From: a virus
IMG/VR virus record: IMGVR_UViG_3300044653_000098
Location: 77,725 to 141,724 of that record
DNA: 64,000 nucleotides
Reading direction: 5' to 3' (one strand)
Part shown: positions 35,981 through 62,113 of the stretch, piece by piece
Numbering within the stretch: the first letter of the stretch is position 1
How the letters are laid out: each line of letters begins with the position of its first letter
Translations under genes and position numbers: made by a program
Notes under the pieces: generated by a model
Told to the model about the DNA's origin: nothing
What the model saw: the letters and a program-made list of their open reading frames with translations, nothing else
The model's database searches: none

Positions 35981-36937
35981 ATGAGAATCCTGGTGACCGG
36001 CGGGGCCGGCTTTATCGGGTCGGCCCTGGTTCGCCGGCTGGCAGGGGAAGATCATGAGGTCGTCGCGCTGGACGACTGCTCCCGCGGGCAGTTCGAGCGC
36101 CTGACGGGGGTGCCCTGCCGCCGGATTCCCGGGGATGTCCGGGATGAGGACGCGGTCCTGGAGGGTATGCAGGGCTGCGATGCTGTGATTCACGCCGCGT
36201 ACTTGCAGGGCACTCAGACGTTTTACGCCGAGCCCAGGCAGGTTCTCGACGTCGCACTGCGCGGGATCCTGAACGTCCTGTCGGCCTGTGAGAAGCGCGG
36301 GACTCCTGACCTGCTGCTCATCTCCAGCTCCGAGGCATACCAGGTTGCTCCCACGGTGCCGACGCCTGAGGAGATCCCGCTCGTCGTCCCCGATGTGCAG
36401 AACCCGCGGTACAGCTACGGGGGCGGGAAGATCTCCTCCGAGCTGGCTACTCTCGCCTGGCATCACGCCGGGGTGCTCGACCGCGCCATCATCGCCCGGC
36501 CGCACAACGTCGTTGGCCCGGACATGGGCCGCGAGCATGTGATCCCGGAGTTCGCCATCCGGATGGGCAAGCTCGTGCGCGAGTACCGCAGCGGGATCAT
36601 CCCGTTCCCGATCCAGGGCACGGGCGAGGAGACGCGCAGCTTCTGCTACATAGATGACTGCGTGGAGCAGCTGTACCGGCTGCTCATGCGTGCGCCGGAG
36701 GGCCCGAGCGTCTGGCACGTCGGGAACATGGACGAGCGCACGATAGCTGACGTCGCGCACGCTGTGGCTGCCTGCTACGGCCGGGAGATCAAGGTCGTCC
36801 CCGGCAAGCTTCCCAAGGGCTCGCCCCCGCGGCGCCTGCCGGACACGGCCAAGATCGAGGCTCTCGGATATAAGGCCGTGGTTCCCTTTGATGAGGCTGT
36901 GCGGCGTTCCGTGGAGTGGTACCAGCACAATGGGTGA
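35981..36937 (+). CDS. NAD-dependent nucleotide-sugar epimerase/dehydratase
   Basis: ILVTGGAGFIGS, ISSSEAY, YGGGK, TRSFCYIDD. Confidence 0.9.
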   Translation: MRILVTGGAGFIGSALVRRLAGEDHEVVALDDCSRGQFERLTGVPCRRIPGDVRDEDAVLEGMQGCDAVIHAAYLQGTQTFYAEPRQVLDVALRGILNVLSACEKRGTPDLLLISSSEAYQVAPTVPTPEEIPLVVPDVQNPRYSYGGGKISSELATLAWHHAGVLDRAIIARPHNVVGPDMGREHVIPEFAIRMGKLVREYRSGIIPFPIQGTGEETRSFCYIDDCVEQLYRLLMRAPEGPSVWHVGNMDERTIADVAHAVAACYGREIKVVPGKLPKGSPPRRLPDTAKIEALGYKAVVPFDEAVRRSVEWYQHNG

Positions 36938-38060
36938 GGTAACCGAGTGCGGGATCTGCGGCAGCCCGGAGCTGGACCGCATCCTGGACATGGGTTTGCA
37001 GCCGCTGGCCGAGCGCGAGAGTGATCTGTACCCGCTGGCTCTGCTGAAGTGCTCGAACTGCACGCTGGTGCAGCTCAGTTACATCGTGGATCAGCAGGAG
37101 GTGTTCCCGCTCAACCACCCGTACGCCACCGGCAACACCAGGTTCCTGCGGGAGCACTTCGCTAAGCTGGCCGCCGAGCTGGCGGACCAGAGGCTGAAGC
37201 CCGGCGATCTGGCGGTCGACATAGGCGCCAACGACGGCACCCTGCTGGCTGCGATCGGGCTGGCAGCGCCGGGCGTGCGTCTGGCCGCGGTCGAGCCCAC
37301 CAACCAGGCCCGCAAGTGCCGTGAGCGCGGCATCAGCACCTACCAGAAGTTCTTCACGCCCGCGGTGGCCGGCGAGATCCTGCACGACCTCGGATGGGCC
37401 AAGGTCGTCATCGCCAGCAATGTGCTGGCTCACGTCCCGGACCCGCACGGGTTCGTGCACGGGGTCACCACGCTGCTGGACCCCGCTGGCGGGGTGTTCA
37501 TTACCGAGAACCATGATTGGGCCAGCATCCTCAATGGTCTGCAGGTAGACACCATCTACCACGAGCATCTGAGGTACTACTCTGTCGCGGCTCTGTCGCA
37601 TCTGCTGGCCGTGCACGGCCTTGAGGTGGCCGGTGTCGAGCCGGTGCCGACACACGGGGGATCCCTGCGGGTGACCGCCCGCAAGACCAGAGGCTCGCTC
37701 AGGGACCGCTCCCGGGACGCCATGTACCGGCTGCGTAACCTGCTGGCCCAGGCAGCGGCTCGTGGCGCGGTCTACGGCATCGGAGCGGCGACCCGCGCGA
37801 CGCCGCTGATCCACTATGCGGATATCGCCGGCTTTATCGACTGCGTCTGCGAGGTCTCCACCAGCGAGAAGATAGGAACGTGCATGCCGGGCACCTCTAT
37901 CCCGGTGGTGGACGAGGCCAAGCTGGTGGCTGACCAGCCGCCGCACGCTCTGCTGTTCTCCTGGCACATCGCGGACAGTCTGGTCCCCAAGCTCCGTGAG
38001 ATGGGTTACCGTGGCAGGCTGATCGTCCCCCTCCCAGAGCCGAGGATCATAGATGGCTGA
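36930..38060 (+). CDS. NDP-sugar C-methyltransferase
   Basis: CGICG..CSNCTLVQL Zn domain, DIGANDG, NVLAHV, DTIYHEH, HGGSLR, YGIGA. Confidence 0.85.
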   Translation: MGEVTECGICGSPELDRILDMGLQPLAERESDLYPLALLKCSNCTLVQLSYIVDQQEVFPLNHPYATGNTRFLREHFAKLAAELADQRLKPGDLAVDIGANDGTLLAAIGLAAPGVRLAAVEPTNQARKCRERGISTYQKFFTPAVAGEILHDLGWAKVVIASNVLAHVPDPHGFVHGVTTLLDPAGGVFITENHDWASILNGLQVDTIYHEHLRYYSVAALSHLLAVHGLEVAGVEPVPTHGGSLRVTARKTRGSLRDRSRDAMYRLRNLLAQAAARGAVYGIGAATRATPLIHYADIAGFIDCVCEVSTSEKIGTCMPGTSIPVVDEAKLVADQPPHALLFSWHIADSLVPKLREMGYRGRLIVPLPEPRIIDG

Positions 38061-38415
38061 CCGGTTCGAGGATCACCGTGGCGTGATCCAGGACATCCTG
38101 CCCGGCCCGATCGACTGCGTCACCCGGATCTTCACCCGGGCCGGGATGGTTCGCGGGAACCATATTCACCGCGAGACCCACCAGTGGACCTACATCATCA
38201 GCGGGACCATGGAGACGGTCCTGTCGGATGATGTAGGGCGTGTGCACACGGATACCCGCATGACGGGCGACCTGTTCCACGAGCCTCCGGGGATGGCGCA
38301 CGCCTGGAGAGCTGTGTCCGATGTCTGGGTGCTGGTTTTTACCCGTGGGCCGCGCTCGGGCGAGAACTACGAGAGCGACGTCCAGCGCCTGGCACCGGAG
38401 GAACACCTGCTGTGA
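38053..38415 (+). CDS. cupin-fold sugar isomerase/epimerase
   Basis: EDHRG, RGNHIH..Q, PPGMAHA. Confidence 0.75.
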   Translation: MADRFEDHRGVIQDILPGPIDCVTRIFTRAGMVRGNHIHRETHQWTYIISGTMETVLSDDVGRVHTDTRMTGDLFHEPPGMAHAWRAVSDVWVLVFTRGPRSGENYESDVQRLAPEEHLL

Positions 38416-39236
38416 GCGACTTCAAGGACATGTGCGTCATCGTGATGGCGTGGCGCAGGCCCTACTACCTGAAGCAGACCCTGGAGTCCTGGGCAGCGGC
38501 CGACGGCATCAAGGACATCCGCAGCTTCATCGTCGGGCTCGGAGAGCACCCGCGCAAAGGCGAGAACCTGGCTGTCATAGCCGAGGCTGAGCAGGCGATG
38601 GGGCGCCCGATCTGGATCCTGGAGGACAGCGACCGGGCCAAGGCCAGCCCGGCCATGCACCGCCCTATGGCCGAGGCGTGCAACGCCGCCTGGGGCAGCC
38701 ACGTCGAGGGCGTGCCGGACGCCGGGTGGGTGATCCTGTCGGAGGAGGACAACACCGTCGCTGATGACGTTCTGCACTACAACAGCTGGTGCCGCGATAC
38801 CTTCCAGGACCGTAAGGATGTGCTGCTGGTCTGCTCCCACGACATCCCCTGGGTGGAGGGCTGGTTCGGGCCCGCGCCGGCTGAGCGTGAGCCGCTGCGC
38901 GCCGACGGCGACCCCAACCCCGAGATCGTCCGGCTCAAGCTCGGGTTCGACTCCCACGCCTGGGGCACGTGGCGCGACCGGTGGGAGCAGATCCTGGAGC
39001 CCACCTGGGACTATGAGTGTAACTCCGGCGGCCCCGACAACTCCGGGTGCGACTGGAACATCGCCACCCGGGTCATGCCCAACGGCGGGTATCTAGCGGC
39101 CTGCCCCGATGCCTCCCGCTCGTGCAACATCGGCCGCGATGAGGGCGTCTACATGCGCCCGGAGAACTGGCACGTCAATGAGGCGTTCAAGCCGGTTTAC
39201 GGGCAGCAGAAGTACCGGCTGGTCGAGGGCTCCTGA
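38412..39236 (+). CDS. glycosyltransferase (GT-A, GT13-like)
   Basis: VMAWRRPYYLKQTLES, ILSEED, WGTWRDRW, NIG. Confidence 0.7.
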   Translation: MSDFKDMCVIVMAWRRPYYLKQTLESWAAADGIKDIRSFIVGLGEHPRKGENLAVIAEAEQAMGRPIWILEDSDRAKASPAMHRPMAEACNAAWGSHVEGVPDAGWVILSEEDNTVADDVLHYNSWCRDTFQDRKDVLLVCSHDIPWVEGWFGPAPAEREPLRADGDPNPEIVRLKLGFDSHAWGTWRDRWEQILEPTWDYECNSGGPDNSGCDWNIATRVMPNGGYLAACPDASRSCNIGRDEGVYMRPENWHVNEAFKPVYGQQKYRLVEGS

Positions 39237-39859
39237 TGGCTGACATCTCCGTCCTGCTGCCGACACGCAACCGGCCAGAGCTGCTGTGCCGCAGCCTCAA
39301 CTCACTGTTTAACCTGGCAGATGAGCCGGACCAGATTGAGGTCTTGCTGGCGGAGGACCCGGATGCGATCTACGACCCCAAGTACGGCAACGTCCTCATC
39401 TGGGTGGCTCCGGAGCGCTACGGCAGCGCCCGGATGCACGAGTATTACAACGCCCTGGCCCGGCTGGCTCACGCTCCGCGCCTTATGATCTGGAATGATG
39501 ATGCGCTTATGTGCTCCTGGGGGTGGGACACTGCTGTGCGCAGTGCGCCCCCGGACGGCTGCCTGTGGCTGGACCACATGGGCACCGGTCCTGATCACTG
39601 CAACATGTTCCCGGTCTGGCCCAAAGCCTGGACTGACCTGCTGGGTCACATCGCTGACGGCTCTCCCCGCGTGGATACCTGGATCCAGGAAGTGGCCGAG
39701 ATCATGGGCCGGCAGGTGAAGGTGCCGGTCCAGCTCCGGCACATCAGCCCGGACGATCAAACGTGGCGAGAGGGGCGGGAGTATTTCCTGCCCGAGTTCC
39801 ATGCGCTGCGGCATCTGCGCGAGCGTGACGCCGAAATCCTGCTGGCTAGCGGATTCTAG
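39236..39859 (+). CDS. glycosyltransferase (GT2-like)
   Basis: ISVLLPTRNRP, WNDD, GWD. Confidence 0.7.
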   Translation: MADISVLLPTRNRPELLCRSLNSLFNLADEPDQIEVLLAEDPDAIYDPKYGNVLIWVAPERYGSARMHEYYNALARLAHAPRLMIWNDDALMCSWGWDTAVRSAPPDGCLWLDHMGTGPDHCNMFPVWPKAWTDLLGHIADGSPRVDTWIQEVAEIMGRQVKVPVQLRHISPDDQTWREGREYFLPEFHALRHLRERDAEILLASGF

Positions 39860-39867
39860 GAGCTGAG

Positions 39868-40650
39868 ATGGCCCGGCGCTGGCATCCCATGATGTTCTAT
39901 AACGAGCTGGACTGGCTGGAATGCCAGCTCTGGGAGACCTACGAGGTGATGTACCGCTACATCATTGTCGAGGCCACCCTGGATCACCAGGGCCATCCCA
40001 AGCCGCTGTACTACGACGACAGCAAATCGCGCTTCGATCAGTGGCGAGACAAGATAATTCACGTCATTGTGCGCGACCTGCCGACGGCGCAGACGACGGC
40101 CAACCACTGGGAGAGGGAACGGCCGCAGCGCGACGCGGCTATGCCCGTCCTCTTCGAGCAGGGCAAGCCGGAAGACCTGATCTTCAACCTGGATGTGGAC
40201 GAGATCCCGAGCCAGACCGCTCTGGCTGCCGAGACCCCGGAGATCAAGGGCCTGCAGCTGAGCAACCACCTGTTCGCGGTCGACTGGTACTCCGAGATGA
40301 ACGTCATGGGATCGCTCGTGCCGGTGAACTGCCTGGAGCGGTCCATGCAGCCCTCCGAGTTGCCAGGCGCGGTCCGCGGCGGTCTGTCCTGGATCCGGGA
40401 GCACCGCTACGGCTACCCGGTCATCCACAACGCCGGCTGGCACTTCAGCTGGGTCGGCGGGGTGGACGAGTACATCTCCAAGGACCAGCGCACCCCGCAC
40501 ACCGAGCACCACGATGAGCGAATGCGCCCCGGCGGACCGGAATACTCCTACTATGAGGGAGCCGGGCAGACGCCTGTCGATGTTGGCCCGGACTGGCCGC
40601 GGTACATCCGGGAGCGCCGTTGCCCTGCCAGCTGGTTCCGGCCCCGGTAG
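39868..40650 (+). CDS. glycosyltransferase (GT17/MGAT3-like)
   Basis: FYNELDWLE, IVEA..HQGHPKPLY, LDVDEIP, GWHFSW. Confidence 0.75.
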   Translation: MARRWHPMMFYNELDWLECQLWETYEVMYRYIIVEATLDHQGHPKPLYYDDSKSRFDQWRDKIIHVIVRDLPTAQTTANHWERERPQRDAAMPVLFEQGKPEDLIFNLDVDEIPSQTALAAETPEIKGLQLSNHLFAVDWYSEMNVMGSLVPVNCLERSMQPSELPGAVRGGLSWIREHRYGYPVIHNAGWHFSWVGGVDEYISKDQRTPHTEHHDERMRPGGPEYSYYEGAGQTPVDVGPDWPRYIRERRCPASWFRPR

Positions 40651-41942: not shown

Positions 41943-42013
41943 GGGGAGCAGGCGACGGCTGCCGGCGGGATTCCAAACCCCGCGACGAGTGGGTTCGACT
42001 CCTACGCACCCTG
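41943..42013 (+). tRNA. tRNA-Trp(CCA)
   Basis: Loop TTCCAAA; T-arm GGTTCGACTCC. Confidence 0.6.
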
Positions 42014-42172
42014 CGGAGCACCACCCTGAAGGCTGGGGTGAACGTGCCAGCAGATTGATAACTCAACAGCGTGAGCATCGCCCAGGGCGCCATCCCTGGG
42101 CACAAGCTCCCCCGTCCGCGCCTGCGCTCAGGTCTTCCTGGGTCACCATCGGGCACGGCCGGGGGAGATCAT

Positions 42173-42244
42173 GGGGATGAGAAGCTGAGGTAGCGACCGC
42201 GCCCTGCAAGCGTTGGTGACTCGGTTCGATTCCGAGCATCTCCA
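42173..42244 (+). tRNA. tRNA-Ala(UGC), C33
   Basis: G3.U70 acceptor pair; loop CCTGCAA. Confidence 0.65.
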
Positions 42245-42323
42245 CGAGACCGCCGCTTGGGGAACAGCTGGGATGGCCTGGTACCGGGCGTTACCCCCAG
42301 ACCTGAAACGGAGCGGCGGCAGA

Positions 42324-42398
42324 CTGGGTATAGCTCAGGTTGGTCAGAGCGCGCGGTCCGGGGCCGCGAGGCCGCTGGTTCAAATCCAGCTACTCAGA
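42324..42398 (+). tRNA. tRNA-Pro(CGG), C33
   Basis: CGCGG-TCCGGGG-CCGCG. Confidence 0.8.
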
Positions 42399-42400
42399 CC

Positions 42401-42530
42401 GGGGGGAGATGCGGGTTCGAGTCCCGCCCTGTCCGTGAAAACTCTCCGCGGTGGCCGATCTGCAGGCGGCTGGCCGGCCAGGGCCCTGGTCAGGAGAGGG
42501 ACAGGTAGTCCAATTGGCAGGACGCCCCCT
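42401..42530 (+). ncRNA. circularly permuted tRNA-like RNA (YrlA-like)
   Basis: 3' half (GGGGG, T-arm, CCTGTCC) precedes 5' half (GGACAGG, D-arm GTCC/GGAC, CCCCC). Confidence 0.65.
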
Positions 42531-42658
42531 ACATTTTCTGGTGCGGCTTACCACGATCCGGCTGGGGTTCGGGAGAAGAACGTCCGGGAGGTCGAGCGCA
42601 ATACGCGGGCGCAGTTCCGCGCAAACGGCGGCCGGATGCTGTGGGAGCACCAGAACAA

Positions 42659-42733
42659 CGGGATGTCGCGTAAGGGTTAGCGCGCCTGGTTTGGGACCAG
42701 GCAGTCAAGGTTCGAGTCCTTGTATCCCGACCA
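42659..42733 (+). tRNA. tRNA-Pro(UGG)
   Basis: CCTGG-TTTGGGA-CCAGG; CCA. Confidence 0.85.
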
Positions 42734-42800
42734 GCGGCCAGGATGTTCACCGTGTCCTGGTGCAGCGGAGGCTCGTTAGGGAGCACCCAACGGTGACGGC

Positions 42801-42873
42801 GGGTCTGTAGCTCAGACGGGAGAGCGGTCCCCTGAAAAGGGACAGGTGGAGGATTCGATCGCCTCCGGGCCCA
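42801..42873 (+). tRNA. tRNA-Phe(GAA)
   Basis: GTCCC-CTGAAAA-GGGAC. Confidence 0.8.
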
Positions 42874-42891
42874 CGCTGTAGCAGGTAGCCC

Positions 42892-42963
42892 GCCGCACTA
42901 ACACAATGGCTAGTGTGTCTGTCTTCCAAGCAGAGAATGCGAGTTCGATTCTCGCGTGCGGCT
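42892..42963 (+). tRNA. tRNA-Gly(UCC)
   Basis: TCTGT-CTTCCAA-GCAGA. Confidence 0.85.
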
Positions 42964-43068
42964 CGGTGACGAGCAGAGCTGAAACCTCTGTGATCGCGCA
43001 AGTGGCTGGCAGGCCACGGCCGGGCAGGCTCTGGGGGACTGCCATCTCGCAGGGGTGCCCGGTTCTGA

Positions 43069-43141
43069 GTGCCGCTAGCACAACGGTTACTGCACCTGAC
43101 TCTTAATCAGGGGGTTCTCGGTTCGAGTCCGAGGCGGCGCA
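43069..43141 (+). tRNA. tRNA-Lys(CUU)
   Basis: CCTGA-CTCTTAA-TCAGG. Confidence 0.85.
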
Positions 43142-43142
43142 C

Positions 43143-43218
43143 GGGCGAGTACGTCCAACTGGCAGAGCGGCCGGCCTCAAAATCCGCGCGGTTGCGGGTT
43201 CGACTCCCGCCTCGCCTA
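43143..43218 (+). tRNA. tRNA-Leu(CAA)
   Basis: Loop CTCAAAA; short variable arm. Confidence 0.7.
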
Positions 43219-43223
43219 CACGA

Positions 43224-43297
43224 TGGAGCATGGTGGTAATTCGGTATCCCACTGGGCCCTGAACCCAGGGATCCAGGTTCGAGTCCTGGTGCTCCAG
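43224..43297 (+). tRNA. tRNA-Gln(CUG), C33
   Basis: CTGGG-CCCTGAA-CCCAG. Confidence 0.8.
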
Positions 43298-43396
43298 CTA
43301 GTCCTGGCCCGGCTTTCCCTGAATTGACAGGCGACCCCGAAGCGTGACGGCGCATAAGGGGACGGGCACGACGGTGCGGTCCGGCCGGGACTTCAT

Positions 43397-43471
43397 GCCT
43401 CCGTAGCTCAATGGTGGAGCAGTGCCCCCGTAAGGCACAGGCCGCAGGGTCAGTACCTGCCGGAGGCTCCA
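43397..43471 (+). tRNA. tRNA-Thr(CGU), C33
   Basis: GTGCC-CCCGTAA-GGCAC; CCA; variant T-loop. Confidence 0.75.
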
Positions 43472-43472
43472 T

Positions 43473-43561
43473 GCGCTCGTGGCGGAATAGGTATACGCGC
43501 TAGCCCGAGATGCTAGTGCTCCGCGAGGGGCGTGCGGGTTCGACTCCCGCCGAGCGCACCA
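43473..43561 (+). tRNA. tRNA-Leu(GAG), C33
   Basis: CTAGC-CCGAGAT-GCTAG; long variable arm; CCA. Confidence 0.85.
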
Positions 43562-43562
43562 C

Positions 43563-43631
43563 GCCGCCGCGCACGGCTTGCGGCCCGGCTCCTGTAAAGC
43601 TGGAGGTCCGGATCGGCACCGGACGGCGGCT
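43563..43631 (+). tRNA. tRNA-Thr(UGU), C33, degenerate D/T loops
   Basis: CGGCT-CCTGTAA-AGCTG; acceptor GCCGCCG/CGGCGGC. Confidence 0.55.
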
Positions 43632-43635
43632 CTGC

Positions 43636-43709
43636 TCCGGGATCGGGTTGCCGGCATCCCGACGCGGCTTTGGACCGCGGTCACGCTGGTTCGAGTCCAG
43701 CTCCCGGAA
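43636..43709 (+). tRNA. tRNA-Gln(UUG)
   Basis: CGCGG-CTTTGGA-CCGCG. Confidence 0.8.
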
Positions 43710-43713
43710 CGAT

Positions 43714-43785
43714 GCCTGCCTAGTGATAACGGCAGCACGCGTCCTTGGTAAGGACGTAGACGGAGTTCAATTCTCCGGGCAGGCT
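43714..43785 (+). tRNA. tRNA-Thr(GGU)
   Basis: CGTCC-TTGGTAA-GGACG. Confidence 0.85.
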
Positions 43786-43789
43786 CTGT

Positions 43790-43862
43790 GTGGACGTGGC
43801 GAAGCTGGTATCGCATCTGCTTGCCAAGCAGAAGATCGCGGGTTCGATCCCCGTCGTCCACT
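43790..43862 (+). tRNA. tRNA-Gly(GCC)
   Basis: TCTGC-TTGCCAA-GCAGA. Confidence 0.85.
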
Positions 43863-43959
43863 CTCCGGCTGCGGTGTTCACCGTGCCAATGCGAAGGGCC
43901 CGACAGGTTCGGTAACCCGGATGGATAAGTCTGCTAGGCCAGCAGGCAAACGGTTGAAT

Positions 43960-44043
43960 GTCCCGGTGGCGTAATTGGTAGCCGCGCACGGCTCAGACCC
44001 GTGTGCCTTAACGGGCGTGAGGGTTCGACCCCCTCCTGGGACA
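43960..44043 (+). tRNA. tRNA-Leu(CAG)
   Basis: CACGG-CTCAGAC-CCGTG; long variable arm. Confidence 0.85.
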
Positions 44044-44153
44044 CGATCGGAACTCCCTCCCGCCGCGGTTCGCGAACGCGGTGATCAGGAGAGCTAAGGG
44101 TCTGGCCCCGCGCCCGGCCGGAGGAGTTCACAGTCAATGCGCATGGCAAGCGG

Positions 44154-44237
44154 GGCGTGACATGGTCTGCGACCAGCTGGAGGTTGGAGGCGGCCTGCAA
44201 AGCCGTCAGCAGCGGGGTTCGATTCCCCGGCGGGCCT
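44154..44237 (+). tRNA. tRNA-Cys(GCA), 5' half irregular
   Basis: GCGGC-CTGCAAA-GCCGT and a clear T-arm; acceptor and D-arm hard to resolve. Confidence 0.45.
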
Positions 44238-44440
44238 CTAACAGGCTCCGTCTGCGTGGATTTCGCAGTTCGGGCCGTTCCCCGGCGGGATGGCATTGGC
44301 GGAGGCTGCGGCCGCGCTCAGGAGGGTGCCGAGTGCAATACCCGCGGCGAGAAGGGCTGCTAGAAGTCGGTAGCGCATGGTCTTCACCTTTCTGCTGGTA
44401 GCTGTCACGGTACGCCTAAGTGATTGTTCTGCACAGGCAT

Positions 44441-44525
44441 GGAGCGGTGGCCGAGCGGCCTATGGCGGTGTCCTGCTAAGGCACTCACCGGAAACGGTGC
44501 GCGGGTTCAAATCCCGCTCGCTCCT
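44441..44525 (+). tRNA. tRNA-Ser(GCU)
   Basis: GTGTC-CTGCTAA-GGCAC; long variable arm. Confidence 0.85.
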
Positions 44526-44528
44526 CTT

Positions 44529-44613
44529 GGAAGGTAGCGCCGAGGATGGCGAACTGGTCCCGAAAACCAGGCCGGGGTGAGTAGCCCCGAGGGTTCGATT
44601 CCTTTACCTTCCT
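44529..44613 (+). tRNA. tRNA-Ser(CGA), C33
   Basis: CTGGT-CCCGAAA-ACCAG. Confidence 0.8.
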
Positions 44614-44617
44614 CTGA

Positions 44618-44691
44618 CCGCCCCGGCTCAGCCGGTGAAGAGGCCCGTCTGATAAGCGGGTAGTCGCATGGTTCAACTCCATGGGGGCGGA
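44618..44691 (+). tRNA. tRNA-Ile(GAU)
   Basis: CCCGT-CTGATAA-GCGGG. Confidence 0.75.
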
Positions 44692-44692
44692 C

Positions 44693-44767
44693 TGGCCAGT
44701 AGCACAAAGGTAAGTGCACCCGTCTTATAAGCGGGCGATACGGAGTCAAGACCCGGCTGGCCTACCA
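44693..44767 (+). tRNA. tRNA-Ile(UAU)
   Basis: CCCGT-CTTATAA-GCGGG; CCA; variant T-loop. Confidence 0.65.
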
Positions 44768-44840
44768 GCTCCCCGCGCCCGACTGGACGGGCACCGGACT
44801 TTTAATCCGGACTGACTGGGTTCGATTCCTTGGGGGAGCA
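44768..44840 (+). tRNA. tRNA-Lys(UUU)
   Basis: CCGGA-CTTTTAA-TCCGG. Confidence 0.75.
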
Positions 44841-44845
44841 CGCAA

Positions 44846-44917
44846 GCGTCGCTGGTGTAAAGGAAGCGCGCTCGCCTTCTAAGCGAGATGGTCTCAGTTC
44901 GATTCTGGGGCGACGCA
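44846..44917 (+). tRNA. tRNA-Arg(UCU)
   Basis: CTCGC-CTTCTAA-GCGAG. Confidence 0.8.
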
Positions 44918-44918
44918 C

Positions 44919-44989
44919 GGCTCGTTAGGTTAACGGCAGACCGCCTGGTTCTCAGCCAGGGAGCAGGGGTTCAATTCCCCTACGAGCTA
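44919..44989 (+). tRNA. tRNA-Glu(CUC)
   Basis: CCTGG-TTCTCAG-CCAGG. Confidence 0.85.
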
Positions 44990-44993
44990 CTTT

Positions 44994-45071
44994 GCCGCTG
45001 TTACTCTGATGGTAAGGGGTAGCCGGGTTTTCACCCCGGACACGACGCGGGTTCGAGTCCCGTCAGCGGCT
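44994..45071 (+). tRNA. tRNA-Glu(UUC)
   Basis: CCGGG-TTTTCAC-CCCGG. Confidence 0.8.
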
Positions 45072-45072
45072 C

Positions 45073-45146
45073 TGCGGACAGCAGCACCGGTCGTGCTGAA
45101 CGGTCTCATAAGCCGAGATAGCTGGGTTCGACTCCCAGGTCCGCAA
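45073..45146 (+). tRNA. tRNA-Met(CAU)
   Basis: CGGT-CTCATAA-GCCG. Confidence 0.7.
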
Positions 45147-45159
45147 CTGTTCAATCTGA

Positions 45160-45233
45160 TCCGGCGTAGCTCAGTCTGGTAGAGCAGCCGCCCGTTAAGC
45201 GGAAGCGCGCAGGTTCGAGCCCTGCCGCCGGAG
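45160..45233 (+). tRNA. tRNA-Asn(GUU), C33
   Basis: CCGC-CCGTTAA-GCGG. Confidence 0.85.
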
Positions 45234-45245
45234 CGCAGTAATCAT

Positions 45246-45318
45246 GGTTCTGTAGCTCAGTGGTCAGAGCGTCCGCCTGTCGAGCGGAGGGCCGCGGGTT
45301 CGACTCCCGTCAGGACCG
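45246..45318 (+). tRNA. tRNA-Asp(GUC)
   Basis: TCCGC-CTGTCGA-GCGGA. Confidence 0.85.
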
Positions 45319-45329
45319 CGCATGATAAA

Positions 45330-45404
45330 GGGTGCTTAGCTCAGCGGAAGAGCAGCAGCACGACACGCTGAAGGCCGCAGGTTCGATCCCTGCAGCGCCC
45401 ACCA
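45330..45404 (+). tRNA. tRNA-Val(GAC), C33
   Basis: CAGC-ACGACAC-GCTG; CCA. Confidence 0.8.
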
Positions 45405-45492
45405 TGCGCGTTACGCCGGAGAACGGCCGCCCAATACGCGCAGCAGGGGACTGTCGTACAGGCGGAGGAAGTCGGCTTGGCGGTCCCAACTA

Positions 45493-45564
45493 GCGTCCAT
45501 CGTTCAACGGATAGGACGGCAGGCTACGGACCTGCTGATGGGAGTTCGAGTCTTCCTGGACGCA
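45493..45564 (+). tRNA. tRNA-Arg(ACG)
   Basis: GCAGG-CTACGGA-CCTGC. Confidence 0.85.
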
Positions 45565-45565
45565 C

Positions 45566-45637
45566 GGGCCGTTAGCTCAGCGGCAGAGCGGCGCCCCCAC
45601 ACGGCGCGCAGCGGAGGTTCGAGTCCTCCATGGCCCA
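45566..45637 (+). tRNA. tRNA-Val(CAC), C33
   Basis: GCGCC-CCCACAC-GGCGC. Confidence 0.8.
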
Positions 45638-45639
45638 CT

Positions 45640-45710
45640 GAGGGCGAACCGCATGGCGCGGAGGCTGGTTGTGAGCCAGTCAGCAGCGGGTTCGAATCCC
45701 GTCGTCCTCC
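45640..45710 (+). tRNA. tRNA-His(GUG)
   Basis: GCTGG-TTGTGAG-CCAGT. Confidence 0.75.
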
Positions 45711-45796
45711 CTTTCCCCCGGTCGTAGGGCCGCACCCGGCAGGGTGATCCGGAGAGCCTGTGTCCATCAGGGCGGGGATCAAAAACTCCGGGCTAT

Positions 45797-45877
45797 GGCG
45801 GAGTGACCCGAGATGGCATGGGAGCGGTCTGTAAAACCGTCGCTTCGGCACGGCTGGTTCGATTCCAGCGTCCGCCA
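45797..45877 (+). tRNA. tRNA-Tyr(GUA)
   Basis: GCGGT-CTGTAAA-ACCGT; long variable arm. Confidence 0.8.
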
Positions 45878-45932
45878 CTCTCCGGGTGCAGGAGCCACAC
45901 GGCTTGGCCGCCGTGCCTGCCCCGGAGCGTAA

Positions 45933-46004
45933 GCGCCTATCGTTCAGTGGATAGGATCGCGGCCCCCGAAGCCGCAGACGCTGGTTCGAGTCCAGCTGGG
46001 CGCA
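45933..46004 (+). tRNA. tRNA-Arg(CCG), C33
   Basis: GCGGC-CCCCGAA-GCCGC. Confidence 0.85.
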
Positions 46005-46005
46005 C

Positions 46006-46077
46006 TGGCCTGAAGCTCAATGGACGAGCGGTCGCCCCCTAAGCGAACGGCTGCGGGTTCGAGTCCCGTCAGGCCGG
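46006..46077 (+). tRNA. tRNA-Arg(CCU), C33
   Basis: TCGC-CCCCTAA-GCGA. Confidence 0.75.
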
Positions 46078-46292
46078 CCACATCGATGCTCACGCTGCGA
46101 GTTGTCCTGGTATCCGGTTCGGCGTTTCTTGCCCGTCGTCCTATCCGGCCCGGCCCCGTCCAAGCGCTCCCGCGGAGATAGCTGTTGTGGCGGGGCCCGG
46201 TCGTATGATAGAGTTGCTTTCGTAACCGCCCGGACCTGCCTATCAGTGCGACGCAGCCGGGCGGACCGCTTTTCCGGGCCGATGAGCCGGCC

Positions 46293-46800: not shown

Positions 46801-47379
46801 GTGGCTGGCTACCTGGACAAGCTCCTGGGACTCGCCGCGGTGCGGGTGCCGGAGTACCAGCGCCGGAGCGCGAAGGGCGGCGCGGTAAGCGTCTCCAGCT
46901 ATACCCGCATGGGCCGCGACGCGATGCAGTCCCACCTGACCTCCTCGCACGGGATGGACGCCCGCGGGCTGGGAAAGGACTTCAGCCACCCGACCAGCCT
47001 CGCCGCTTGGCACGGCGCCGACCACGTCGCCCGCGGCGACGGGCTGGACCACCAGCACCCCGAGGGCATCGCGGCGCACGCCGACCACGCCGTGGCTCAT
47101 GAGAGCGAGCATGGCCACGGGCTCGGGGCTGTGGCCGGCCACATGGCGGTCTGGGAGGCCCCTGCTATCGCCCACCGTGAGGTGCGCCGGACCGTCGACC
47201 GCCAGACGCGCCGCCGGCTCTACCGGCTGGACAAGCACCGCGGTGGCTCGAAGAAGCGCCCAGGAGGCGGCTTCGCGTCCGGTGTGGCGTCAGGAGCGTC
47301 GGGCTCCTCCTCCGGTGGGGGCGGAGGATCGGGTGGCTCAGGGAGCAGCTCAGGCTCGTCTGGAGGCAACAGCCAGTGA
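46801..47379 (+). CDS. His-rich hypothetical protein with Gly/Ser tail
   Basis: VRVPEYQR..VSVSSYTR motif; His clusters. Confidence 0.6.
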   Translation: MAGYLDKLLGLAAVRVPEYQRRSAKGGAVSVSSYTRMGRDAMQSHLTSSHGMDARGLGKDFSHPTSLAAWHGADHVARGDGLDHQHPEGIAAHADHAVAHESEHGHGLGAVAGHMAVWEAPAIAHREVRRTVDRQTRRRLYRLDKHRGGSKKRPGGGFASGVASGASGSSSGGGGGSGGSGSSSGSSGGNSQ

Positions 47380-48380
47380 CGTACCTGGAGAGGCTCCTCG
47401 CGCTCACGCCGCAGACGCCCGAGGCGTCGACCGTGCCCAAGCCCATCCACCCTGGTGGCCCTGGTCTCTGGCACCATAAGAAATGGATGGCGCCACCCTA
47501 CGTGGAGCACGTCGCCCAGGCTCTGATGCGCCGGGGCAAGTCCGAGTCCGAGGCGTACCACCTGGCGGTCGGATTGATGCACTCATGGAGTGCAGGTCAC
47601 GACGGTCATGGACACCACGTGCACGCCGACGTCAAGGCGGCGGCCGCCGCCAACCTCGCCAAGTGGGAGGAGCTGCGCGGCCGCGCCCACGCCAGCCACT
47701 TGGCCAAGAAGGCAAAGGGGCACAGCAAGAGCCATCACGATCTCGCGGCGAGCGCTGCGTGGGACGAGATCGGTGAGCTGATGGTGGAGTTCGCCCGGAC
47801 CGCCCCGCTCGACATCATGGAGCTGGCCTCGGGCCCGACCTACTTCTACGACGCTTCGATGCTCAAGGGAGGATCGGAGGCCAGCGCGCCGGGCGCCAAG
47901 CGGATCACCAGCAACCAGCTGCGCCAGAATCCGAGCCAGACAGTTGCCGCCAACCCCCCGCTACCGCCCGGCGTCACGCTGCCCACCCCGGCCGAGCTGA
48001 ACCAGCTCGCCGCGAATATCTCCTCGGCCGGCCTGCCCGAGAGCGACCTCATCCGTGGCGCCCGCGATCACGCCAGGGCAGCAGCCATGAAGATGCAGGC
48101 TAACCAGCCGGTCGACGCGCTGCACATGCTGCGCGCGTGCCAGGCGGGGATCGTCTCAGCCCACCGGGAGTACAACGGCAGTCTCATCCCGGTGGCCAAT
48201 GTGTTCAGCGCGCGGCTGGCGCCTGCTGAAGCAGCCTCGGCGCGGGCCGAGATGTTCGAGGGACTGAAGACCCGCGACACCTTCCGCCAGCTGGCTACGC
48301 AGTGTGCGCAGTTCATCGACCGGATCCGCCGTCACATCTTCCATGGTTTGTATAACCACATGGCCGAGGCAAGGTTCTAG
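47376..48380 (+). CDS. hypothetical protein (probable head-associated)
   Basis: PPYVEHVAQALMRRGKSESEAYHLAV..WEEL. Confidence 0.6.
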   Translation: MTYLERLLALTPQTPEASTVPKPIHPGGPGLWHHKKWMAPPYVEHVAQALMRRGKSESEAYHLAVGLMHSWSAGHDGHGHHVHADVKAAAAANLAKWEELRGRAHASHLAKKAKGHSKSHHDLAASAAWDEIGELMVEFARTAPLDIMELASGPTYFYDASMLKGGSEASAPGAKRITSNQLRQNPSQTVAANPPLPPGVTLPTPAELNQLAANISSAGLPESDLIRGARDHARAAAMKMQANQPVDALHMLRACQAGIVSAHREYNGSLIPVANVFSARLAPAEAASARAEMFEGLKTRDTFRQLATQCAQFIDRIRRHIFHGLYNHMAEARF

Positions 48381-48997
48381 TGGACAAGGTCACCCGCCTG
48401 CTGCAGCTCGCTGCACAGGACATCAGCCCGTCGAGCACCATGATCTACCTGCAGGCCCCGCCAGCGCTGTTTCCTGGTGAGGTGATCGATAAGCCCGGCC
48501 ACCTCACCGTGGTGTATCTGGGCAAGGTCGGGCAGGCCGAGTTCACCACCGCCTGCGAGCGGGCGAAGTCCGCGGCCGGCGCGGTGCCGCCGATCCACGC
48601 CACGGTTGGCGGCCTTGGCTCGTTCGAGCCGACGGAGAACTCCGACGGCAAGAAGGTCTACTACTGCCCCGTCTACGGCGACGGCATTCACTGGCTGCGT
48701 GCGCTGCTGGCCGACCTCGCCGCGCCGAACGCGCTGCCGTTCGTCCCGCACATCACCCTGGCCTACGCGGACGAGGGCGATGACCCCCCGCCTCCGGTCA
48801 CCAGCGGCCGGCTGTGCTTCACCCAGCTGTACGTCGCCCGCGGCGCGCAGATCTGCGCCTACCCGCTGAAAGGCGGCCACGAGCCGCACGGTTCCGGTCA
48901 GCACATGCGGGACCGGCGGCCGGGCGAGGCTCCGCTGAGCCGGATCGACGCTGTGGTGGAGCTGGCCGACAAGGTGGCGCCGGGATGGCGTACCTAA
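48380..48997 (+). CDS. 2H phosphoesterase (2'-5' RNA ligase family)
   Basis: Two HxT motifs: HLTVVYLG and FVPHITLAY. Confidence 0.8.
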   Translation: MDKVTRLLQLAAQDISPSSTMIYLQAPPALFPGEVIDKPGHLTVVYLGKVGQAEFTTACERAKSAAGAVPPIHATVGGLGSFEPTENSDGKKVYYCPVYGDGIHWLRALLADLAAPNALPFVPHITLAYADEGDDPPPPVTSGRLCFTQLYVARGAQICAYPLKGGHEPHGSGQHMRDRRPGEAPLSRIDAVVELADKVAPGWRT

Positions 48998-60843: not shown

Positions 60844-62113
60844 ATGCCCAATATCAGCCTTCTTGAACCGATGGTCCTGAGAGGGGTAGTTTTACCGGGT
60901 TGAGAAATTTACAGTCCCGGAATCTCTCGTAATGCTCAACCGGCTCGACCAGACCCCGTGGCCGTGGCCGTACGCGACGTGGGACGTGATCAAGGGCTCG
61001 CGCATGATGGCAGCGCCCAACGTCCCGAACGCCGAGGCGCACATCGTCTCCCGTCTCGGCCGCAGCCAGGAGACCGCGAGCTTCGTCTACCTGCGCGAGA
61101 AGAAGATCTTCGAGCCGACCACGCTGCACTGGCTGCGCGTGCCTGGCGAGCTGGCCCGGGTCAACGCCGAGCAGAGCGTGCTGCGCGAGGTCAACGACCT
61201 CAACCAGCGCTTTGATAACTTTGCCGAATGGCTGATCTGGCAGGCTATGGGCGGCTCGATCGTCTTCCAGAGCGGCCAGGGCTTCGCTGGCACCTCCGGC
61301 CCGACGGGCCCGAGCGGGATCAGTTCTGGAGCCGGTGACGTTCAGGCGACGGTCGACTTCAAGTTCCCGTCCAGCCACTTCGTCCAGCCCGCGGTCCCGT
61401 GGCTGGCCAACAGCGCGCTGACGTGGGGCACGACCGGCATCGGCGCCAACACGACGCTGAACCAGGCCAACACCAACCTGCAGGCCGGCGGCGGCTCGAT
61501 CTCCTACGCGACTCCCATGGAGATCGTGGAGGACATCCGGTCCTGGAAGCGGATCGTCCAGATCCACGGCCGCGTCCCGGCCACGGAGGTCTTCGCCACC
61601 TCGGTCACCCTCGCTGCGATGTTCGAGGCGTGGGTCCAGGCTGGTCAGGGTTCTACCGTCAACATCCCGGCCACGATGCTCAGCGACCGGATGAAGGATG
61701 AGTATTACTCGTCCGGCACGCTCTCGGGCTTCATGGGCCTGACCTGGAACACCGTCGAGGAAGTCTTCGAGAACACCTCGGGCGTCCTGACGTTCTTCGT
61801 CCCCGACGGCATGCTCTACATGGGCAACTACAGCGACCAGCGGCCGCTGGAGCTGCTGATCGGCCCGACCGCGGACGACGAGGCGCCAGATGGATTCACC
61901 GGCAAGTACGCCAAGACGTGGAAGGAAAAGGACCCGTCGGCGCGGCAGTACCTGCTGGAGTGGAACCTCCTGCCGATCGTGACCCGGCCCGAGCAGATGC
62001 TCGTGGTCGACGGCATCATCGCCAACAACACGACCACGGCTACCTACGCCGGCGGCTCGGGTGGCAGCCTCCAGACCTACCCGTACTACTTCAACCAGAA
62101 CCCGACCGATTGA
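60844..62113 (+). CDS. major capsid protein (lambda gpE-like), requires a 10-nt hop at 60892-60901
   Basis: GAGGAGG SD, ATG 60844 MPNISLLEPMVLRGVV|EKFTVPESLVMLNR...; downstream EWLIWQAM, VDFKFP, WKEKDPS..LP. Confidence 0.85.

Follow-up and report, generated by a model that had tools for sequence, protein, structure and literature searches.

Uridine at position 33, immediately 5′ of the anticodon, is regarded as the most invariant nucleotide of elongator transfer RNAs (tRNAs). U33 is almost invariant among tRNAs at large, the eukaryotic initiators, with C33, being the exception (PMC5041475), and formation of N6-threonylcarbamoyladenosine (t6A) by TsaBCDE of Escherichia coli is blocked in vitro when position 33 is C (PMC8887486). 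Among phage tRNAs, changes in the anticodon stem-loop have been proposed (PMC10264068) or shown (PMC11464382) to confer resistance to nucleases, and at the adjoining position 32 of Vibrio cholerae tRNA-Tyr the enzyme TrcP underlies editing of C to U and then to pseudouridine (PMC9553926). A search of the literature gave no description of C33 in phage tRNAs, or of phage tRNA sets rich in C33. The present analysis concerns such a set, an array of co-oriented tRNA genes in a 64,000-nucleotide stretch of viral DNA (bases 77725-141724 of IMG/VR record IMGVR_UViG_3300044653_000098; hereafter ‘the window’), in which a third of the genes have C at position 33.

The source genome of the window (G000) is a 141.7-kb IMG/VR virus record with a guanine-plus-cytosine (GC) content of 66.8%, representing an uncultured phage that encodes a replisome, terminase and portal. 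Its nearest cultured relative is Microbacterium phage Magritte, with 35% DNA polymerase identity. Among 108 open reading frames (ORFs) with high GC at third codon positions, drawn from the whole of G000, TTA accounts for 0/2779 Leu codons, and CTA and TTG are very rare. GC content, the absence of TTA and the relationship to Magritte together indicate that the host is probably an actinobacterium.

The excess of C33 in this array is specific to position 33 and to the lineage, and the genes that carry it are maintained and predicted to encode working elongator tRNAs. Their expression, charging and decoding, as well as the size of any fitness cost of C33, are judged here from the genes. The account developed below, to which an even chance is given, is that these are working tRNAs in which a change from U33 to C has been tolerated, and pushed by GC mutation pressure.

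C33 in the tRNA array

tRNA genes were called with ARAGORN at default settings, with a relaxed ARAGORN run (-ps90), and with Infernal against Rfam model RF00005 (gathering threshold 29 bits). The default run gave 30 tRNAs within 42324-46080, all on the + strand, and C33 was present in 10/30; with tRNA-Ala(UGC) counted, the array contains 11 C33 genes among about 33 tRNAs (Table 1). In the Infernal alignment this C falls in the column of the consensus U33, at the highest posterior probability (five genes displayed: Asn-GUU, Val-GAC, Val-CAC, Arg-CCG and Arg-CCU), and the U33 characteristic of RF00005 members is replaced by C in 10/30 genes plus Ala. Nine of the 11 C33 genes scored 32.7-58.4 bits, above the 29-bit threshold, and the Rfam scores of C33 tRNAs (about 33-58 bits) were no lower than those of U33 tRNAs. 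Ser-CGA, an ARAGORN call, was matched in Rfam through the Sec model only, at 31 bits.

The initial annotation, made from the sequence without database searches, had listed twelve C33 tRNAs. Eleven of these were recovered, by ARAGORN and Infernal or, for Ala-UGC, by conservation, whereas the twelfth, a Thr(UGU), does not exist: the only loop with TGT is that of tRNA-Tyr(GUA), which has U33 and had been read one base out of frame. Ala-UGC itself was detected by ARAGORN only at the relaxed threshold (-ps90), and with a poor score. It is counted as a maintained RNA because it forms a 100% identical island (73/73 positions) in the sister genome G001, described below, while the flanks on either side are badly diverged.

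C33 was unevenly distributed with respect to the first anticodon base, being found in 7/12 genes of G000 with C34, 3/11 with G34 and 0/6 with U34.

Table 1. Position-33 state and location of the array, its C33 genes and two U33 genes, in window coordinates.
Feature	Position	Strand	Anticodon loop	C33 position	Further details
Co-oriented tRNA array, about 33 genes	41943..46080	+			30 by ARAGORN default, plus Trp-CCA, Ala-UGC, Ile-UAU, Tyr-GUA
tRNA-Ala(UGC)	42173..42245	+	CCTGCAA	42204	weak D arm; G3:U70 present
tRNA-Pro(CGG)	42324..42400	+	TCCGGGG	42358	Rfam 53.6 bits; identical loop in G001
tRNA-Gln(CUG)	43224..43298	+	CCCTGAA	43258	G001 identity 100%
tRNA-Thr(CGU)	43397..43471	+	CCCGTAA	43428	G001 identity 98.7%
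tRNA-Leu(GAG), class II	43473..43561	+	CCGAGAT	43506	G001 94% identical, loop unchanged
tRNA-Ser(CGA), class II	44529..44614	+	CCCGAAA	44560	ARAGORN call
tRNA-Ile(UAU)	44693..44764	+	CTTATAA		U33; Rfam 43.7 bits; missed by ARAGORN default
tRNA-Asn(GUU)	45160..45234	+	CCGTTAA	45193	G001 allele 60% identical, U33
tRNA-Val(GAC)	45330..45404	+	ACGACAC	45361	
tRNA-Val(CAC)	45566..45638	+	CCCACAC	45597	C33 likewise in G001, Bxz1
tRNA-Tyr(GUA), class II	45797..45877	+	CTGTAAA		U33; Rfam 35 bits; G001 counterpart called Tyr by ARAGORN
tRNA-Arg(CCG)	45933..46005	+	CCCCGAA	45965	no G001 counterpart found
tRNA-Arg(CCU)	46006..46080	+	CCCCTAA	46037	

Other positions that are normally invariant were kept. 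Among the 30 tRNAs, T54 was present in 29, T55 in 30, C56 in 30, A58 in 29, the G53:C61 pair in 29 and G18G19 in 30, the T loop of Thr-CGU being the single exception among the nucleotides of conserved tertiary interactions. That loop is aberrant (GTCAGTA, without T54 and A58; the G001 version is GTCGGTA). U8 was absent in 6-7/30 tRNAs and was never replaced by C; losses of U8 and T54 are at least as frequent in relatives without C33. Drift towards GC acting equally at other invariant positions, which the initial annotation had put forward as the finding that would undo its claim, was not seen: U33-to-C occurred in 10/30, compared with 0/60 for T54/T55-to-C (p = 5e-6). Both general decay and a GC drift affecting the invariant positions as a class were rejected, T54, T55, C56, A58 and G18G19 being intact.

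Comparison with other arrays

The same ARAGORN parse was applied to G001, to distant relatives found through a polymerase alignment, to cultured phages and to one bacterial genome. C33 was found in 10/30 tRNAs in G000 and 11/31 in its sister G001. Counts elsewhere were 4/36 in G002, 0/24 in G003, 0/44 in G005, 0/14 in G006, 0/24 in G007 and 1/30 in G008 and, among cultured phages, 0/25 in Magritte, 1/42 in Pumpernickel, 2/26 in Bxz1, 1/27 in ScoobyDoobyDoo and 3/24 in CcrColossus, giving a pooled 12/316 over these eleven other phage arrays. The frequency in G000 exceeded that in ten other phage arrays (9/292; Fisher p = 6e-7) and that in the complete tRNA set of a GC-rich Acidimicrobiia genome (1/50, Val-GAC being the only one; p = 1.5e-4). 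More distant relatives have U33 in the isoacceptors that carry C33 here.

Relatives of this phage were few in the collections searched. The DNA polymerase alone, used as query, recovered the sister only; seven genomes at a greater distance came up only once Magritte's polymerase was part of the alignment used. No cultured phage matched the array by megablast, and distant blastn gave scattered single-tRNA matches only. A scan for the Gln-CUG anticodon arm with a pyrimidine at position 33 added one small array (Gln with U33, Glu-CUC with C33), its other matches being non-tRNA.

Conservation in a sister genome

G001, an IMG/VR contig, was the only close relative in the collections searched, with 94.5% amino-acid identity in DNA polymerase. 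Its array locus (L001:3200-7700) was compared with window 42173-46080. Nine C33s are kept in G001, those of Ala, Pro-CGG, Gln-CUG, Thr-CGU, Leu-GAG, Ser-CGA, Val-GAC, Val-CAC and Arg-CCU. Stems of the C33-bearing pairs differ between the two genomes by four double compensatory changes, five changes of the G-U type and one break; Arg-CCU, for example, keeps its loop while showing two compensatory pair changes in its stems. Ala, Gln and Thr stand out as 99-100% identical islands amid diverged spacers. Both features indicate purifying selection acting on tRNA structure. These comparisons uphold two statements of the initial annotation: that the C33 tRNAs have mostly intact stems, the cloverleaves being intact and the stem changes compensatory, and that they do not reflect simple decay, since invariant positions are kept and the C33 genes are conserved in the sister.

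The sister arrays are mosaic, with gene-pair identity ranging from 57% to 100%. The Gly-UCC, Gln-UUG, Cys, Asn, Asp, Ser-CGA and Trp pairs are only 57-66% identical, as if swapped for foreign alleles. The G001 allele of Ser-CGA has 63% identity and a different anticodon stem, yet the same C33 loop.

Position 33 differs between the sisters in four genes, with C in G001 for Phe, Ile-UAU (loop CCTATAA) and Asp, and C in G000 for Asn. By outgroup comparison all four differences are U-to-C gains, with 0 losses. They comprise 2/about 21 closely related gene pairs, plus two pairs with less than 65% identity. Position 33 is always a pyrimidine in G000 and G001, and C33 is found across 14 different isoacceptors in the two genomes together. 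For comparison, 12-20% of the four-fold sites in flanking proteins (n = 2) differ between G000 and G001, with C/T differences at 8-11% of the pyrimidine sites.

C33 in cellular tRNA-Val(GAC)

Cellular genes were scanned for the Val-GAC anticodon arm with a pyrimidine at position 33, using one genome per species. Among the sampled matches, Val(GAC) genes sharing one anticodon stem had C33 in 18/32 and U33 in 14/32. The C33 genes, with loop TCGACAC, belong to Planctomycetota, Acidimicrobiia, Spirochaetes and others, and include ten chromosomal loci (L045, L050, L056, L069, L081, L083, L085, L097, L108 and L111). The Val-GAC anticodon arm of phage Bxz1 is identical to the cellular type, with the same loop TCGACAC, and C33 in Val-GAC is common to G001, G002, G008, Bxz1, ScoobyDoobyDoo and the cellular genes. 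The window's Val-GAC loop, ACGACAC, fits the form N-C-G-A-C-A-C, which covers 1/11 of its C33 genes. Since C33 Val(GAC) is fixed in whole bacterial lineages, at least one elongator tRNA of bacteria works with C33 in its native form, and C33 is hence compatible with bacterial ribosomes.

Tolerated change, adaptation and other explanations

On the tolerated-change account, position 33 in this lineage would act as ‘any pyrimidine’ rather than ‘U only’. Strong GC mutation pressure would favour U-to-C transitions (the C share of synonymous C/T sites, tallied from codon counts, is roughly 83%), and C would accumulate at position 33 since the cost there would be small, especially next to C34 or G34 and in G/C-rich anticodons, with the indispensable U and A positions (T54, T55, A58) expected to remain fixed. 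The C33 tRNAs are presumed to form a C-turn replacing the U-turn, as is presumed for the eukaryotic initiator and for native C33 tRNA-Val(GAC). A likely side effect is that host enzymes which read U33 would stop acting on these tRNAs; bacterial t6A37 synthesis on Thr-CGU, Asn-GUU and Arg-CCU is an example. The reasons for this account are the correlation of C33 with GC, the restriction of position 33 to pyrimidines, gains without losses, turnover close to the synonymous rate, and the preference for anticodons that begin with C34 or G34. GC pressure on a tolerant position accounts for C33 as well as any role in evading defence does.

Several observations weigh against it. Arrays matched for GC (G007, Magritte, Bxz1, ScoobyDoobyDoo and G002) have C33 in 7/138 tRNAs, compared with 10/30 in G000 (p = 7e-5). 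GC alone is therefore insufficient: the step in C33 frequency, from 0-12% to about 35%, goes with a GC content only some 2 points higher. Likewise, the GC-rich Acidimicrobiia cell keeps U33 in 49/50 tRNAs, and from this and the low GC-matched arrays it follows that a relaxation specific to the lineage is required. Full neutrality would predict about 80% C at position 33, whereas about 35% is seen. Of the evidence in favour, the correlations of the C33 fraction across 12 phage arrays, with tRNA GC (rho 0.71) and with the share of C at position 32, which varies freely (rho 0.74), are uncorrected for phylogeny, and the approximate match of position-33 turnover to the synonymous C/T rate between the sisters rests on two to four events. 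No C33 has reverted, and two very different Ser-CGA alleles both have C33. Finally, the codons that C33 tRNAs read (CAG, CCG, GUC, GUG and CGG) are common ones by codon counts, and not dispensable. Codon usage does not discriminate, however: common codons ending in G or C fit equally well with tRNAs that are needed and protected, and with tRNAs that are redundant with those of the host and relaxed.

The poor fit to simple neutrality gives some room to an adaptive explanation, which is possible but doubtful: C33 would remove a U required by a host anticodon-loop nuclease or by a U33-dependent modification enzyme, allowing phage tRNAs for common codons to survive an attack on, or marking of, the host's tRNAs. 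Precedents exist in T5 tRNA-Lys, set against AriB of the PARIS system (PMC11464382), and, as a hypothesis, in what van den Berg et al. propose for mycobacteriophages of cluster C1 (PMC10264068), in the supplement of which Val-GAC and Val-CAC with C33 are found in 88-89% of 161 cluster C1 phages and flagged as mutated. C33 is also known to alter acceptance by enzymes, as in the in vitro block to t6A formation by E. coli TsaBCDE (PMC8887486). The abundance of the codons read, the retention of C33 in nine shared genes without reversion, and in both divergent Ser-CGA alleles, and a gene for a LigT-like 2H phosphoesterase 2.3 kb downstream of the array are all consistent with evasion. On the other hand, neither of the two precedent studies assigns a nuclease requirement to U33: AriB cuts at 40/41 (PMC11464382), and position 33 is never mentioned by van den Berg et al. 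(PMC10264068). The 14 isoacceptors with C33 also contrast with the anticodon nucleases discussed in PMC10264068, each of which hits specific tRNAs. Turnover near the synonymous rate and the correlation with GC require no selection; furthermore, no RNA ligase was recognised among the ORFs adjoining the array, and a search of G000 for RtcB (PF01139) gave no match. The broader proposition, that C33 is a counter-defence hiding a third of the phage tRNAs from a U33-dependent host nuclease or modifier, or else a substrate for C-to-U/pseudouridine editing at position 33, is likewise one to be entertained only tentatively. Selection for nuclease evasion or editing, as suggested in the initial annotation, found no direct support: C33 tracks tRNA GC and turns over at near the synonymous rate, and a search of G000 with PF00383 gave no cytidine-deaminase domain.

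A host whose own tRNAs have C33, from which these genes would descend or which they would imitate, is a very unlikely explanation. Chromosomal C33 Val(GAC) is native in several bacterial lineages, and the identity of the Bxz1 Val-GAC anticodon arm to the cellular type would fit such an origin. However, the single complete cellular set has C33 in Val-GAC only, distant relatives have U33 in the same isoacceptors, and the gains in Phe and Ile-UAU arose by point mutation inside the phage lineage, after the split of G000 and G001.

Editing, in which C33 would be converted after transcription to U or pseudouridine, so that C and T would be equivalent in the gene and GC pressure would choose between them, is very unlikely. 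Bacterial conversion of C to U to pseudouridine has its precedent at the adjoining position 32, in TrcP (PMC9553926), and editing would predict what is seen here: neutral turnover between C and T, pyrimidines only, and a correlation with GC. Against this, no deaminase domain of the CDA type was found in the 141.7-kb genome: a profile search of the whole of G000 with PF00383, the only family searched, gave no match at E <= 0.1, although a host enzyme or a divergent fold is possible. Moreover, each of the unrelated phages with C33, and each of the many phyla with C33 in cellular Val-GAC, would need such an enzyme. Editing at position 33 is not known to have been reported, and literature searches likewise gave no instance.

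That the C33 genes are decaying pseudo-tRNAs is hardly credible: there are odd members (Ala with its poor D arm, Thr-CGU with its aberrant T loop, Ser-CGA with its low score) and U8 is absent in 6-7/30, but the remaining invariant positions are kept, substitutions in the stems compensate one another, the genes persist as conserved islands amid spacers that have diverged, C33 genes match U33 genes in Rfam score, and losses of U8 and T54 are equally common or commoner in relatives without C33.

Neighbouring genes and further C33 tRNAs

Downstream of the array, by 1.3-2.3 kb, lies a pair of ORFs on the + strand. The first, of 334 amino acids (47376-48380), has no detectable family; the second (48380-48997), which starts at the last base of the first, belongs to the LigT-like 2H phosphoesterase / 2′-5′ RNA ligase family. 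The pair may have a function in healing RNA ends. Just upstream of the array (36888-40650) are sugar-modifying genes, comprising a C-methyltransferase with a zinc-binding N-terminus alongside a pair of ORFs resembling glycosyltransferases (one matching Pfam family 17, the other with a weak PHROG match). Beyond the LigT-like phosphoesterase and the sugar-modifying enzymes, the array-flanking ORFs had no match in Pfam, PHROGs, NCBIfam or the ESM Atlas. As queries, the array-adjoining glycosyltransferase found no relatives in IMG/VR, and the 334-amino-acid neighbour recovered a single sister contig from IMG/VR and nothing from metagenomes.

Within the array, a weak, sub-threshold Rfam match (23 bits) to a permuted transfer-messenger RNA lies at 42220-42286, and a structured gap of 258 nucleotides separates Pro-CGG from Pro-UGG (42401-42658), with a dubious low-threshold ARAGORN call.

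Two cultured phages yielded C33 tRNAs of their own. In Pumpernickel, ARAGORN called an extra tRNA-Gln(CUG) with the C33 loop CCCTGAA (L009:30867, record about 95866), which lies just after a small coding sequence and is absent from the GenBank annotation. In CcrColossus, a gene annotated as ‘tRNA-OTHER’ (L217:9001-9078, record 61499-61576) is a tRNA-Pro(CGG) with the U32-C33 loop TCCGGAG, 82% identical to Pro-CGG of the window; C33 occurs likewise in Pro-GGG and one Ile-GAU of this phage.

Implications and comparison with known systems

A conserved phage tRNA set of which a third has C33, together with native C33 Val(GAC) in bacterial phyla, makes the U33 rule softer than textbooks have it. 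Phe, Asn, Asp and Ile-UAU provide natural C33/U33 pairs between sister genomes with which the role of U33 could be probed, be it in decoding, in t6A and other modifications, or in recognition by anticodon nucleases. If the adaptive explanation were true, it would suggest that host enzymes reading U33 exist as a class so far overlooked, and evasion or editing would amount to an undescribed general route by which phages tune their tRNAs; if the neutral explanation were true, it would caution against calling every change in a phage anticodon loop a counter-defence.

The closest counterparts are Val(GAC) and Val(CAC) of cluster C mycobacteriophages (Bxz1, ScoobyDoobyDoo; PMC10264068), which belong to arrays of actinobacterial phages, as the window's tRNAs probably do, and likewise combine C33 with otherwise normal cloverleaves. 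Their loops (TCGACAC, ACGACAC and TCCACAC) closely resemble ACGACAC and CCCACAC of the window, but one or two of 26-27 tRNAs have C33 in these phages, compared with a third of the set, and 11 anticodons, here. Native cellular Val(GAC) is, like the window's genes, a bacterial elongator with C33, although it is chromosomal and confined to one isoacceptor per genome (1/50 examined), whereas the window's set is viral and numbers 11 genes. Eukaryotic initiator tRNA-Met shares C33 and an altered acceptance by modification enzymes (PMC5041475, PMC8887486); it is, however, a single initiator species of eukaryotes, while the C33 tRNAs of the window are elongators.

T5 tRNA-Lys, in relation to PARIS AriB, and the mycobacteriophage tRNAs of van den Berg et al. 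resemble the present set in that the anticodon stem-loop sets phage tRNAs apart from cellular ones; the window's tRNAs differ at position 33 both from relatives and from the cellular set. In those cases the change lies where a known nuclease has been mapped to cleave or recognise its target, with resistance demonstrated for T5, and no requirement for U33 is mapped (PMC10264068, PMC11464382); in the window the change is always at position 33 and spans many isoacceptors, and any resistance that it may confer is hypothetical. The tRNA-Tyr on which TrcP acts has, as here, a genomic C in the 5′ half of the anticodon loop where U is usual, but at position 32 of one tRNA served by a dedicated enzyme, compared with position 33 in the window, whose genome gave no match to the PF00383 deaminase family.

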